Shown piece after piece: positions 49,543 through 56,426 of a DNA stretch of 64,000 nucleotides. The notes beneath the pieces were generated by a model that saw only the letters and a program-made list of their open reading frames with translations, ran no database searches and was not told where the DNA came from. This stretch comes from a virus (taxonomy: Duplodnaviria > Heunggongvirae > Uroviricota > Caudoviricetes). Made by a program: the position numbers and the translations under genes. Numbering within the stretch: the stretch's first letter is position 1; every line of letters begins with the position of its first letter. The stretch lies in IMG/VR virus record IMGVR_UViG_2839610755_000002. The stretch is one strand, 5' to 3'.

Positions 49543-49618
49543 TGGTGGCCCCTACCGGACTTGAACCGGTGACCGTGCGATTATGAGTCGCCAGCTCTAA
49601 CCACTGAGCTAAAGGGCC
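49543..49618 (-). tRNA. tRNA with CAU anticodon (Ile2/Met-type; ileX-like acceptor stem)
   Basis: Hand-folded cloverleaf: acceptor GGCCCTT/AGGGGCC, anticodon loop CTCATAA, T-loop TTCAAGT, encoded CCA; coordinates approximate. Confidence 0.7.
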
Positions 49619-51563: not shown

Positions 51564-51639
51564 TGGTGCCGATTAACGGGATCGAACCGCTGACCATTCG
51601 CTTACAAAGCGACTGCTCTACCAACTGAGCTAAATCGGC
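51564..51639 (-). tRNA. tRNA-Thr (UGU)
   Basis: Hand-folded: acceptor GCCGATT/AATCGGC, anticodon loop TTTGTAA, T-loop TTCGATC, encoded CCA; coordinates approximate. Confidence 0.8.
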
Positions 51640-51643
51640 AATG

Positions 51644-51730
51644 TGGTGGGGAGTGATGGAGTCGAACCACCCGAGTCGCAATGACAGTAGATTTACAGTC
51701 TACCCCGCTACCCCTACGGACTAACTCCCC
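51644..51730 (-). tRNA. putative class II tRNA, Tyr-like (GUA anticodon, long variable arm)
   Basis: 87 nt: acceptor GGGGAGT/ACTCCCC, anticodon arm GTAGA-CTGTAAA-TCTAC, 15-nt variable arm, T-arm GGTGG-TTCGACT-CCATC, CCA. D-arm pairing is irregular. Confidence 0.45.
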
Positions 51731-51735
51731 TAAAG

Positions 51736-51810
51736 TGGCGATGGTGGGTGGATTCGAACTACCGACCAGTTGGTTAACAGCCAACTGCTCTACCGCTGAG
51801 CTACACCATC
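51736..51810 (-). tRNA. tRNA-Asn (GUU)
   Basis: Hand-folded: acceptor GATGGTG/CACCATC, anticodon arm GTTGG-CTGTTAA-CCAAC, T-loop TTCGAAT, CCA; coordinates approximate. Confidence 0.75.
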
Positions 51811-52475: not shown

Positions 52476-52492
52476 AAATTTATTAGAGCAAT
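52476..52492. promoter_or_regulatory. C1 operator, perfect consensus match, overlapping the dmt stop codon
   Basis: AAATTTATTAGAGCAAT is the exact reverse complement of ATTGCTCTAATAAATTT; preceded by ACACTAATAAATTT giving a near-palindromic double site. Confidence 0.7.
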
Positions 52493-55400
52493 ATACCCAA
52501 AACGTCATGAGCTACACCTCGAGTGTCCCCCTTACAAGACACAGAACGTCTGGCAAAAAGAGGTTCCACTCTGAAGCCACTGTCATGATAAAGCTCTCTG
52601 ATGTTTGGCGCGCCACTGTTAGTAATGAGAACCTTTGCACCTCGACGATGAGCATCCGTCAACAGAGACACCAGGCGTTTTTGCTCTTCAAACTTAAAGT
52701 CATGACCGGAATAGTTCGTGAATCCCTCTGTATTTGGAAGCGGTTCATACGGCGGATCGCAAAAGATGACATCTCCTTCTCCGGCAGCTTCAATCACCGC
52801 TGCAAAATCACCGCATACAAACTCAGACCGCCCTTCCGCACCGAGGAAGGCTTCCATCTCCTGTAATGGGAAATACGGAGTTTTATACTTCCCATAACCG
52901 ACATTGAACTCACCGGCCTGGTTGTAACGCGTCAATCCGTTAAAACAATGTCGGTTCAGGAACAAAAACGCCGCTGCGCGATGTAAATCATCATAGACTT
53001 GTTTGTTAAACGCATTCCGTACTGCCAGGTATCCTTCCTGTGTGTTGTAGTCCTGGAAGAAACGATGTGCCAGAGTGATAAGTGAATGCGCCTCGCGTTG
53101 CAGAGTCTTGTAAAAGTTAATCAGGTCAGCATTCACATCATTTAGCAGATTTTCCTGGTATCCGGCATTCATGAAGACAGCTCCGCCACCAACGAAAGGT
53201 TCAATCAGGCGCTTCCCTTCTGGCAAATAGCGAAAGATTTGTTCCAGAACACCAAATTTTCCACCAGCCCATTTGAATATGGACCGTTCGAATTCTGCCG
53301 CTGGTTTAACTTTTCGCTCTTTTGTTTCACTTCCTTCTTTCTGCCGACATACGGCCTTAGTAATCCGATCGCCAATCCAGCGCATTACTGGTATTGCCAT
53401 ACTATTGCCGATCGCTTTGTAACGCGGTCCGTCAGCTGCAAGCATTGCGGCCTCTTCTTCGCTTAAATCTGGATAGTGATTGTGCAGATATGCCAGTTCA
53501 TCTGAATTAACTTTTTTACGCTTTTCCGTAGGGATCAACGTATGCCAATCAGGAAAACCTTGCAGCCTTTCACATTCGACAGGGGTAAGACGGCGCATTC
53601 TACCGTCGCCGAGCAATACAATTGGTGCTTCATGGTTACATGTCAAAGTTGGTGCCGAATTATCGGTTTTTATCTCAGCCCCTCCTTGCCCATGTGCCAT
53701 GGCAATTATGTTTGTATCATCGCAAGTTCTGATAGCGATGTTTGAAGTATATCTGGTAGTTTCCTTCCCCTCGCCTCTGCTCGGCGCAATATTCCGGCGC
53801 ACGCCTTCGAACTCAAAAAGTACCGTTGCGGGATCGAGATCTGTTCGAGCACTTGCGACAACAAACACGCGTCGGCGTCGTTGTGCCACTCCGAAGTATT
53901 GGGCATCAAGGATTCTCCAGGCCACTTTTCGCTGCGGTCCATAAATACAACCACACTGCGGCCACTTTGGAACATGGCAACCGGTTTTGCCATCCCACCG
54001 CCAGAACGCGTTGCTTTTTCCTGATTCAGGTCGATCACCTGGTTCAAATGGCACATCTTCTCCAGCCAATCCGGCAAGGAAACATCCGAAGGCGTTATCT
54101 GCCGATGACAAGACTCCTGGGACATTTTCCCAGACGATAACGGCTGGTTTGAGAAATGACTCAGCCCGTTTGTCGTCAATTGCATTTGCAAGCTCCACAT
54201 ACTTTAAAGTTAGCGCGCCACGCTCATCATCAAGCCCACCACGTAATCCCGCGATACTGAATGCCTGACAGTTATGGACCACCGCACCATTGAGGATATA
54301 GGAATGATCACCTTCGACTTCTATGTTGTATACAGTATCTAGGCCTACCGATTTAAACTCTTTGACTGTTCGTAAAAGCATTCCATGAGCCAATCTTGAT
54401 TTACGTGACAATTTCTGCGGGCAGATTGTTACCTGATAATAATTCCGTTGATTTACCACGCGATCCTCGATCACTTTTTTGGGCTCAACTTCAATAAAGC
54501 TGACCGAAGAAACATAACCACAAGTCTGTGACAACCCCGCAACGCCCCAAGCAAGCGCAGAACTAACACTATTAATTCTAAATCCCGCTTTACCACTTGG
54601 TGTCCCATCAGTATCAAGATAGCCTTGTAAAAACACATGACGCAATGGATGCGACATCACCCATGCAGGGATACGCTTAGCATGGCTTAACTCGCCAAAA
54701 TGTTCATTAAGCCAATTGGCATAACACGTATCATTCAAGGTTACTTTGATGCTCCCTCGGATTTCGCTTGCCACGGAAAATATGTTTTCTGGTATGCGGC
54801 AATGAAACTTTCTCAATTTCTGGCAATTTATGCCAAAAACAACCGCCTTCTTAGATTTACCTCTCCATCTCCTAATATATCCATCGCCAACATAAGCGCC
54901 CGCAAGATACATAGCCTGTTCTTCAGACAAGAACCGAGAACAAATATCTGGAAATGCAATATTGAAATTAGTTAGAGCGCACCATTGATATCCCGGCATA
55001 TCACATGCTGCTCGCCATTCCGGTTCAGACAACAACTCTCTCTTAAAATATGTGCCATTTTTCCGGGTGTTTTGGGCTTTCCACCGAACAGCCAGGAAGG
55101 GATGGTCATTGGTTGTTCTTATACCTAAAGGCTGCCCAACGGCATTAAGTAACCCCGTATTAGCTATTTTTGAACCAACTCTTTTTACTTGTTGTAACCG
55201 CCCGAGATGACTGACTACGTAATCACCAGGGCAAACATTTTCTATTGGTTTATAGCCATTTTTACAAAGAACCATATGCCCCGCGGTAAAACATGGTGTT
55301 CCCCCGACGAGCACGTCAGGGGATTCGATTTCCCCAGCCAAGACTTTTTTGGCAAGTTTTTTCATGTCGCCAAGGTTGGCAACATGGGGCCAGCGGAGCG

Positions 55401-55524
55401 CAAGAACGGCCGATGGAAAAGGCTCGATTTCAGCAAACCACGCCGGACGCATACCCAACGGTTCCCAGGCAATACTCGCGGCTTCAATTCCACTGCAAAC
55501 AGATCCATAGCACAGCTCTTTCAC
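52483..55524 (-). CDS. dmt: Dmt bifunctional DNA methyltransferase (N-terminal C5-cytosine MTase interrupted by an intein; C-terminal Dam-like N6-adenine MTase)
   Basis: C5 motifs I ([11 protein letters not shown]), IV (GGTP|CQAFSIAG, split by the intein) and VI (VIVWENVPG); Dam-like KWAGGK and DPPY in the C-terminal half. Confidence 0.8.
54271..55293 (-). other. intein (341 aa) with LAGLIDADG homing-endonuclease domain inside dmt
   Basis: Starts with Cys (CFTAGHMVL), has TTNDHPF (block B-like), [12 protein letters not shown] and [11 protein letters not shown], ends ...NGAVVHN followed by Cys; excision restores [12 protein letters not shown]. Confidence 0.7.
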
Positions 55525-56426
55525 TGCTTAGCCTCTCCGCCAAGGGCATTTACCAGAGCATCAACCAGGCACGAAATTTCACTGGTCAACAGGAAGAAAT
55601 CTGCGTCCAGTCGCTGCGCAACATCTTCACTATCAATATCAGAGTTCTGCTCAAGCAATTCATCCGCAAATTTGACGCTGGTAAGGCTGAAGTTATGGTC
55701 CAGTGTAAATTTAATGCGGTTCTGCCAGTCGAGTGCCAACTTAGTGACGAGCTTGCCAGCTTCCAGGTGTGTGGAAATTTCATCGCTTCCCAAATCCTGC
55801 TTTTTCACTCGGGCAATACCGCCATCCTCAAGCACTGCCTTAAGTTCTGCCGCATCCCCCATTTGAAATCCCTGTGGAGCACTACCATCACGTACCCAGT
55901 CGGTCAGCGTTAATTCAATGGGATTTTCAACACTCAGGGGAACAGCAGGAAGAGAACCCAGAGACTTACGCATAAGCGCGAGCATATCCTCTGCCTGCCG
56001 CGCGCTGGCATTGATATAGATACGTTTAGTTGAACCGTCGTAGATCGCCTGGATAACAGAAAACTTTGAAAAAGCCCGTGGCAGAAGAGAATGCAGAACT
56101 TCGTCTTTCAGGGAGTCCTTCTCTGTTTTCTTCAGTTTACGCGCTTGTTCTTGCTGAAGTTTTTCAATTTTTTCTTGAATAGCTCGCTGGATAACCGGCG
56201 GGGGAAGAATTTTTGTTTCGCGCTTTGCTTCAACAAGGATAAAACCATTTCCATGCATAGCGATAACTTCAGAATTATCACCAAATGGCGATACAAAACC
56301 GAACTTGGCCATATCCTGACTACCGCATGGCGTGAAAAGGATCATTTTCTTTTTATCTTCTAAGTCGGTCAGATCCGCCTCACGAGAAAGTTTATAAATA
56401 GTAATGTTTTTCCAGTGCTTAAACAT
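55521..56426 (-). CDS. hrdC: HrdC, RdgC-like recombination-associated protein
   Basis: Internal start [13 protein letters not shown] resembles the RdgC N-terminus (recalled); about 301 aa. Confidence 0.6.

Follow-up and report, generated by a model that had tools for sequence, protein, structure and literature searches.

A predicted class-1 intein with a nested LAGLIDADG endonuclease at the catalytic cysteine of the Dmt methyltransferase of P1-like phage-plasmids

In the 64,000-nucleotide stretch of Caudoviricetes DNA analyzed here (IMG/VR record IMGVR_UViG_2839610755_000002, the whole of which is called the window in the following), which belongs to a P1-like phage-plasmid, the gene dmt codes for a DNA methyltransferase (MTase) whose catalytic motif is split by 341 additional residues. 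What is this block, can an enzyme interrupted in this way be restored, and how did the block come to lie where it does? An earlier, sequence-only reading had taken it for a LAGLIDADG-type intein. The results described below make it very probable that the block is an intein of the canonical class-1 type, in which a LAGLIDADG homing endonuclease is nested and which separates Pro77 of Dmt from the catalytic Cys of motif IV, and that it splices and homes. By this analysis the intein appears to be genuine and intact, and it would be expected both to splice and to cleave DNA. It is an undescribed member of a large, mostly unannotated intein family in phage cytosine methyltransferases.

The 341-residue block and the enzyme it interrupts

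The block was found, exact to the base, at the coordinates given by the sequence-only reading, in an open reading frame (ORF) of 1013 amino acids (aa), and its translation is identical to the residues quoted there. The motifs named in that reading (motif I, GGTP/C, TNDH, the two LAGLIDADG-like motifs, the C-terminal end, ENV, KWAGGK and DPPY; here and below a slash denotes a junction) were likewise all in place. In window coordinates, the parts of the intein and its junctions are the following.

54271..55293, minus strand: intein, 341 aa, Cys1 to Asn341 (precursor residues 78-418), translation CFTAGHMVL...NGAVVHN
Precursor aa 74-77: GGTP, directly before the intein, located by motif
55291..55296, minus strand: N-terminal junction, ...CCA/TGT...
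55234..55293, minus strand: block A with Cys1, the predicted first splicing nucleophile; Hint_2 match over intein residues 1-49
55102..55113, minus strand: block B TxxH, T61-N62-D63-H64, located by motif
54874..54909, minus strand: LAGLIDADG motif 1, intein residues 129-140, YLAGAYVGD137G, putative catalytic Asp137
54601..54633, minus strand: LAGLIDADG motif 2, intein residues 221-231, FLQGYLDTD229G, putative catalytic Asp229
54271..54333, minus strand: blocks F and G, intein residues 321-341, with penultimate His340 and terminal Asn341; TIGR01443 match
54268..54270, minus strand: +1 Cys codon, Cys419 of the precursor and Cys78 of spliced Dmt, in PCQ of motif IV

All residues characteristic of class-1 splicing are present, namely Cys1, T61xxH64, His340-Asn341 and the +1 Cys, and among 50 relatives they are invariant or nearly so; Cys1 of block A and the Thr of block B (T138 of the precursor) are nearly invariant, and the His of block B (H141) is invariant. 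The C-terminal end of the block aligns with that of the Spl DnaX mini-intein and reads ...VVHN/C, the His-Asn pair of block G being immediately followed by the +1 Cys. The central part carries two LAGLIDADG motifs in a single chain, as in the DOD type, and each motif ends in a putative catalytic acidic residue (D137 and D229). In homologues 29-53% identical to the intein, G132, Y134, D137 and G138 of the first motif and G224 of the second were invariant, and D229 and G230 were kept in at least 90%. The GC content of the intein is 42.7%, as compared with 54.5% and 48.4% in the exteins.

Two haplotypes of the intein can be told apart at codons 19, 114 and 245, neither of which affects catalytic residues: N19, F114 and S245 mark the window and phage Ro157c2YLVW, as against D19, S114 and P245 in the other five alleles sequenced.

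In profile searches with the intein, the Pfam model LAGLIDADG_3 (PF14528) was matched above cut-off (E 3e-8). The NCBIfam model TIGR01443 (intein_Cterm) gave 25.9-28.9 bits at a cut-off of 15.6, and several 'intein-containing' exception models of NCBIfam were matched in part. A search of PDB sequences gave only weak matches (Spl DnaX mini-intein, E 0.0015; PI-PkoII, E 0.024), and a comparison of folds was therefore needed. The AlphaFold2 model of the intein, built from an alignment of 11 sequences (pLDDT 92.1, pTM 0.89), has a beta-rich N-terminal part (approximately residues 1-107) and a C-terminal part (approximately residues 299-341), which flank an alpha/beta core (approximately residues 124-292). 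Foldseek comparison of this model with the PDB returned PI-SceI (E 1e-16), TliVMA, PhoVMA, PI-PfuI and PI-PkoII as full-length matches, followed by the free LAGLIDADG enzymes I-SceI, I-AniI and I-OnuI and then by mini-inteins. According to the model the intein is predicted to adopt the Hint fold, and the region of approximately residues 124-292, which matches I-SceI, I-AniI, I-OnuI and WhiA, has the alpha-beta-beta-alpha-beta-beta-alpha arrangement of a pseudo-dimer. Searches with Hint and LAGLIDADG profiles had been proposed as a check in the sequence-only reading; their outcome, with LAGLIDADG_3 and intein_Cterm above cut-off and Hint_2 just below it (see below), and the PI-SceI-like predicted fold bear out the assignment, and matches of this strength, with a presence/absence break exactly at the predicted boundaries (see below), go well past what chance would give.

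The host protein, Dmt, is a fusion of a C5-cytosine MTase domain, which the intein splits, and a Dam-type N6-adenine MTase domain. Its precursor matches PF00145 (E 7e-30), PF02086 (E 2e-56, aa 752-984) and TIGR00571 (E 6e-74, aa 748-1007), the latter two identifying the C-terminal 260 residues as the Dam-family domain. The limits of the gene are those of the CDS annotated in OP279344 and NC_013370. The C5 part of the C-extein also contains the variable target-recognition region. The extein features are the following.

52483..55524, minus strand: dmt precursor ORF, 1013 aa plus stop, GTG start, from the ORF list
55294..55524, minus strand: N-extein, aa 1-77, with C5-MTase motif I and the first half of motif IV (..VLVGGTP)
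55477..55509, minus strand: C5-MTase motif I, aa 6-16, located by motif
53290..54270, minus strand: C-extein part 1, remainder of the C5-MTase domain, lower limit approximate
54115..54141, minus strand: C5-MTase ENV motif region (VIVWENVPG), in C-extein part 1
53863..53883, minus strand: QRRRR, in C-extein part 1
53386..53409, minus strand: GNSMAIPV, in C-extein part 1
52486..53289, minus strand: C-extein part 2, Dam-type N6-adenine MTase domain (PF02086, TIGR00571)
53257..53277, minus strand: FKWAGGK, Dam motif
52747..52758, minus strand: DPPY, Dam motif

When the block is removed in silico, the spliced Dmt displays all hallmarks of C5 MTases: motif I, PCQ of motif IV, ENV of motif VI, QxRxR of motif VIII and GNS of motif X. 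In alignment of this sequence with PDB sequences the +1 Cys falls on Cys81 of M.HhaI (GFPCQAFS), which is the nucleophile attacking C6 of the cytosine in C5 methyltransferases. The +1 extein nucleophile would therefore be Dmt's own catalytic cysteine, as had been proposed in the sequence-only reading from the motif IV that is rebuilt upon removal of the block. A double role of this residue, as second splicing nucleophile and as catalytic Cys of motif IV, is thus supported by the sequence comparison.

Occupied and empty dmt alleles

Megablast comparison of dmt with phage genomes revealed P1-like phages covering 100%, 94%, 66% or 60% of the gene. When Dmt proteins were aligned, initially from five and then from fifteen alleles, the 341-aa block was present or absent as a single unit, and the break was always between ...VLVGGTP and CQAFSIAG...; the alignment with intein-less Dmt that had been suggested earlier thus yielded a discrete insertion at GGTP/C. 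The empty alleles of MH422554 and of P7 (annotated 'Dam') both code for 672 aa, which equals 1013 - 341 and agrees with the length of about 672 aa foreseen for the spliced protein. Reference P1 has no intein, in agreement with the sequence-only reading: its Dmt (NC_005856, 754 aa) is empty and has a different and longer target-recognition region. Six empty plasmid alleles code for 672-862 aa. Occupied alleles were found in three lengths (1013, 1095 and 1148 aa), which differ solely in the target-recognition region, and the same target-recognition backgrounds were also found among empty alleles. As judged from these sequences, the intein occurs in at least three target-recognition-domain backgrounds.

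The putative target-recognition region (window approximately 53500-53800, minus strand, after QRRRR) is itself swapped wholesale between dmt alleles. The Dmt lengths of 672, 754, 762, 807 and 862 aa without and of 1013, 1095 and 1148 aa with the intein correspond to at least five cassette variants, which assort independently of the intein, and such cassettes suggest that P1-like phages diversify the sequence specificity of their C5 MTase.

The Dmt encoded by OP279344, a genome sequenced from a P1vir stock kept in the laboratory (bioRxiv 10.1101/2022.09.09.507302), is 1013 aa long and carries the intein. Since reference P1 does not, common laboratory P1 lineages differ at dmt. In this record (OP279344.1, 'P1 isolate del res del mod', 88,362 bp) the intein-containing dmt with the short target-recognition domain is located at 61684-64725. 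Identity to the window dmt is 99.0% for this gene and 97.9% for the alignable parts of the reference P1 gene.

Reference P1 Dmt (NC_005856) has another peculiarity at codon 74 (approximately window 55303-55305, minus strand), where a GGG>TGG change puts Trp in the place of Gly, so that motif IV reads VLVWGTPC, with the replacement three residues ahead of its catalytic Cys. In 14 of 14 other aligned alleles and at all 103 IMG/VR junctions this part reads VLVGGTPC or has synonymous or other Gly-type variants. The replacement might cripple the C5 activity of reference P1 and thereby explain why its Dmt record annotates this activity only as 'perhaps'.

The intein is common, being present in about 24-32% of P1-like dmt alleles. 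It was detected in 126-129 of 498 dmt-carrying plasmids of PLSDB (approximately 25%). Among complete E. coli genomes (n=5426) it was found in 152, as compared with 480 that have the Dam segment of dmt (approximately 32%), and searches for the junctions in IMG/VR gave 25 occupied and 78 empty sites (24%). The rarity implied by the sequence-only reading did not hold up, as the intein occupies between about one quarter and one third of the dmt alleles of P1-like genomes and the family at the same site is very large (see below). The window dmt is 100% identical to that of plasmid NC_013370 of E. coli O111:H- 11128, and the hosts of the intein include E. coli, E. albertii, Salmonella and Shigella. 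In E. coli genomes it is nearly always on plasmids and usually in one copy per genome, and each match in the 153 E. coli records spans at least 80% of the intein.

Five of these 153 copies are chromosomal, for example that in NZ_CP007394.1 (2166446-2167468, under a 'Dam family' annotation), and are presumably integrated or mis-assembled P1-like elements. No spread into the host dcm or other resident C5 MTases was found among the 12 listed E. coli records (one of them chromosomal), all of which are under dmt-type annotations, with one or two intein copies per genome.

Annotations of the full-length P1-like genes do not go beyond 'Dam family ... methyltransferase' or 'Dmt' and leave the intein unmentioned, and some fragments have automatically been named 'Hint domain-containing protein' or 'DOD-type homing endonuclease'. 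Hundreds of P1-like records carry the designation 'Dam family methyltransferase' in this way, and because the intein is not annotated, comparisons of Dmt length, domains and phylogeny are distorted.

Downstream of dmt the window has four tRNA genes (49543-49618 and 51564-51810, minus strand), of which Asn-GTT, Tyr-GTA and Thr-TGT are clustered and the fourth is Met-CAT. In the inspected stretch of reference P1 only Asn and Thr tRNAs are annotated; the Tyr tRNA gene is common to the window and phage Ro157c2YLVW.

Divergence, mobility and alternative explanations

The synonymous divergence (pS) of the intein from the window copy was 0.009-0.035 in seven occupied alleles, as against values of up to 0.18-0.22 for the flanking parts of dmt (N-extein and Dam segment) in E. 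albertii alleles. In one of the latter, L011, synonymous differences were counted at 8 of 227 sites in the intein and at 10 of 55 sites in the adjoining N-extein. Polymorphism of the intein among the seven alleles is mostly synonymous (ratio of nonsynonymous to synonymous divergence, pN/pS, approximately 0.21), and the intein contains no stop codon or deletion in the seven fully sequenced alleles. The conservation of D137 and D229 and the pN/pS of 0.21 suggest that the endonuclease is under selection.

Of the Pro codons that directly precede the insertion point, all 32 from occupied sites are CCA and 85 of 86 from empty sites are CCT, whereas occupied and empty sites alike show variation at wobble positions some codons farther upstream. 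Comparison of the empty alleles for an altered homing site yielded no other consistent difference than the -1 base, T in empty and A in occupied sites, and the idea was not retained. An empty site with the CCA footprint was not seen among the 86 empty sites, and these gave no sign of precise intein loss. The sites concerned read as follows.

Proposed empty target site: ...GGxACxCCT/TGTCAGGCATTC...
Empty dmt site as spelled out: GGTACGCCT/TGTCAGGC
Two natural empty dmt sites: GTCGGGGGTACGCCT/TGTCAGGCATTCAGTATCGC and GTCGGGGGAACACCT/TGTCAGG...

Taking into account the low pS of the intein, the CCA/CCT marker, the polymorphic occupancy and the several backgrounds, the common ancestor of the intein appears to be more recent than that of the host genes. 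These features and the distribution of the intein fit horizontal spread by homing. The sequences indicate that the intein moves with its immediate flank, as expected of gene conversion initiated by an endonuclease, and the CCA/CCT association fits co-conversion. This population evidence for homing is indirect, and general recombination contributes to the pattern as well.

In the mechanism that we propose by analogy with characterized inteins, the 1013-aa precursor would be translated with motif IV split and the C5 domain inactive. Cys1 would undergo an N-S acyl shift, the +1 Cys (the future active-site Cys) would attack the resulting thioester, and Asn341 would cyclize with the aid of His340. 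The final S-N shift would yield the 672-aa bifunctional Dmt with GGTPCQAFS restored, and the free 341-aa intein. The latter would act as a site-specific endonuclease, cutting the empty dmt site when intein-less and intein-carrying P1-like genomes share a cell, and repair from the occupied allele would copy the intein together with at least the neighbouring base.

Several observations weigh against a splicing and homing intein. In Pfam, Hint_2 (28.1-28.2 bits, cut-off 28.4) and Intein_splicing, which was matched weakly, stayed below their gathering thresholds, and the match to Hom_end was also weak; relatives of the intein reach 3e-23 with Hint_2 and 2e-20 with Intein_splicing. Position 4 of block F is Asn (VYNIE), where Asp is usual. 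Most relatives at the same insertion site share this Asn, which is probably a family trait, and it is not disqualifying because Asp at this position is frequent in inteins but not universal. P1-like genomes are strongly mosaic, with identical Dam segments beside diverged C5 segments, and in part this mosaic pattern could have arisen by ordinary homologous recombination with no endonuclease involved. The CCA/CCT association could equally reflect one ancestral junction retained by descent.

The last points would agree with an intein that splices but has an inactive endonuclease, as in a late phase of the homing cycle, and that has spread by vertical descent and general homologous recombination. 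Recombination mosaicism is evident in dmt, and the presence of one junction haplotype, CCA, in all occupied alleles fits a single origin followed by recombination. However, both catalytic Asp residues and the motif residues around them are intact and are conserved across the relatives of 29-53% identity. The low pN/pS, the seven full alleles free of stops and deletions and the coverage of at least 80% in the 153 E. coli records also argue against loss of the endonuclease, and so does the L011 intein, whose synonymous divergence is 5-10 times below that of the adjoining N-extein. We consider it unlikely that the endonuclease is inactive.

A further proposal concerns the function of the intein, which might serve as a post-translational switch uncoupling the two activities of Dmt. 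The Dam domain would be active already in the precursor, for pac-site methylation and packaging, and the C5 domain only after splicing, the rate of which could depend on conditions, for example through a redox-sensitive Cys1/Cys+1 pair. Such a pair is conceivable because the +1 Cys is the enzyme's own nucleophile. If the switch existed, P1 lineages with and without the intein would differ in when or how extensively cytosine is methylated, and hence in anti-restriction phenotype. No evidence obtained here specifically favours splicing-gated C5 activity, and we regard the switch as quite unlikely.

Another assumption would be that the insertion does not splice at all, that the C5 domain is permanently disrupted and that the 1013-aa protein is a Dam-type adenine MTase only. 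Among the activities of P1 Dmt only Dam has a documented role, in pac-site methylation (PMC12707154), and the 'perhaps' in the annotation of the C5 activity and the Asn in block F would also agree with this assumption. On the other hand, the set of splicing residues (Cys1, TxxH, His-Asn, +1 Cys) is complete and conserved, the C5 motifs of the exteins are intact in occupied alleles, whose exteins are as conserved as those of empty alleles, and a dead insertion would be expected to gather damage, none of which was seen in the seven full alleles. A non-splicing insertion is on this evidence very improbable.

The idea that the block is something other than an intein, be it a bacterial intein-like (BIL) domain, an in-frame fusion of a free-standing endonuclease or a group I or II intron harbouring a LAGLIDADG ORF, can practically be dismissed. 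LAGLIDADG ORFs are common in group I introns and an in-frame non-intein insertion, the ShiLan domain, is known in actinophage methylases (PMC9957025, PMC11855218), but the reading frame runs through the block unbroken, the endonuclease has a Hint half on either side, Rfam models matched to 53900..55700 revealed no intron or other RNA element (only a chance SAM_alpha match, E 0.65), the full-length structural matches are inteins (PI-SceI, TliVMA), and neither the HN/C junction at the C-terminus nor a nested endonuclease is a BIL feature.

A splicing and homing intein is thus the explanation that we prefer. With occupancy polymorphic at 24-32% in a tractable E. coli phage and with the intein present in a P1vir stock, dmt is a convenient system for measuring homing of the intein, co-conversion and the cost in fitness in a phage-plasmid. 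As a candidate new meganuclease, the endonuclease would have the conserved coding sequence of motif IV as its natural target.

Relatives and comparison with known inteins

When 1.84 billion cluster representatives were searched exhaustively with phmmer, the intein gave 4287 matches at E<1e-3, 186 of them at E<1e-30. A word-indexed homologue search returned 20 matches, and the size of the family was visible only by the exhaustive search. Among the 139 best full-length relatives, approximately 127 have an xP/C junction at the N-terminal side, and at the C-terminal side 121 have N/CQ and 110 have HN/CQ; these representatives include more than 120 clusters of C5 methyltransferases with the relative at the same P/CQ site. 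PF00145 proteins made up 44 of 50 sampled relatives. By these sequence comparisons the P/C site in motif IV of C5 methyltransferases is a major, long-established insertion point of inteins. In the nearest relatives the identity of the inteins (40-57%) tracks that of the exteins (approximately 50-75%), which suggests long residence of the intein lineage in this methyltransferase clade.

Relatives in phages were identified by tblastn against phage genomes, and their junctions were then read directly. The intein in the C5 MTase of Mannheimia phage vB_MhS_587AP2 (48% identity) has the junctions GGTP/C...HN/CQS, that in gp50 of Propionibacterium phage B22 has GGSP/C...HN/CQDLS, and that of Escherichia jumbo phage A4 has GGFP/C...HN/CQAWS. 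Inteins at the same site were also found in the C5 methyltransferases of EBPR siphovirus 2 (gp44) and Pseudomonas phage Lana.

In the Mannheimia phage, whose gene (L005:1264-3584) harbours the closest non-enterobacterial relative, the reading frame breaks just past the intein, at ...VVHN/CQS. In the annotation the gene is divided into CDSs named 'hypothetical protein' and 'cytosine-specific DNA methyltransferase', which are followed by an HNH homing-endonuclease ORF. The frame break may be due to decay of the host gene or to a sequencing frameshift.

For inteins to sit at catalytic residues of phage enzymes that act on nucleic acids is a textbook pattern. The dmt intein does not represent a new kind of intein biology, as C-5 methylase inteins are already listed for actinophages: a 2025 survey names 'DNA methylase N-6/N-4 and C-5' among the proteins previously reported with inteins (bioRxiv 10.1101/2025.01.02.630785). 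Inteins in N6/N4 methylases of mycobacteriophages have been described (PMC5050341, PMC9957025). No publication on an intein in dmt of P1, P1-like phages or punaviruses was found in a literature search, which is not proof of absence as most subscription journals were outside its coverage.

The inteins at the P/CQ site of other C5 MTases belong to the same family as the P1-like copy and share its insertion point (xP/C...HN/CQ), although their identity to this copy is no higher than 27-57%. The P1-like copy also differs from them in its host, a fused, bifunctional C5 and Dam enzyme on a phage-plasmid of Enterobacteriaceae.

The mycobacteriophage DNMT-1/2 inteins are likewise LAGLIDADG inteins in phage DNA MTases, with patchy distribution and evidence of horizontal transfer (PMC5050341, Kelley et al. 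2016; PMC9957025). With approximately 27% identity to the dmt intein they are distant relatives. Their hosts are N6/N4 (PF01555) rather than C5 methylases, and the junction (...HV/C...KN/CPLQ) is not in motif IV.

The best structural matches of the dmt intein are PI-SceI from VMA1 of S. cerevisiae, TliVMA, PI-PfuI and PI-PkoII (Foldseek E 1e-16 to 4e-10). With these inteins it shares a class-1 Hint domain split by a two-motif LAGLIDADG endonuclease, Cys1, the His-Asn pair and the +1 Cys, whereas sequence identity is as low as 11-16% and both host protein and insertion site are different. With 341 aa it is approximately 100 residues smaller than PI-SceI (454 aa), a size suggesting that it is probably devoid of the extra DNA-recognition region of PI-SceI.

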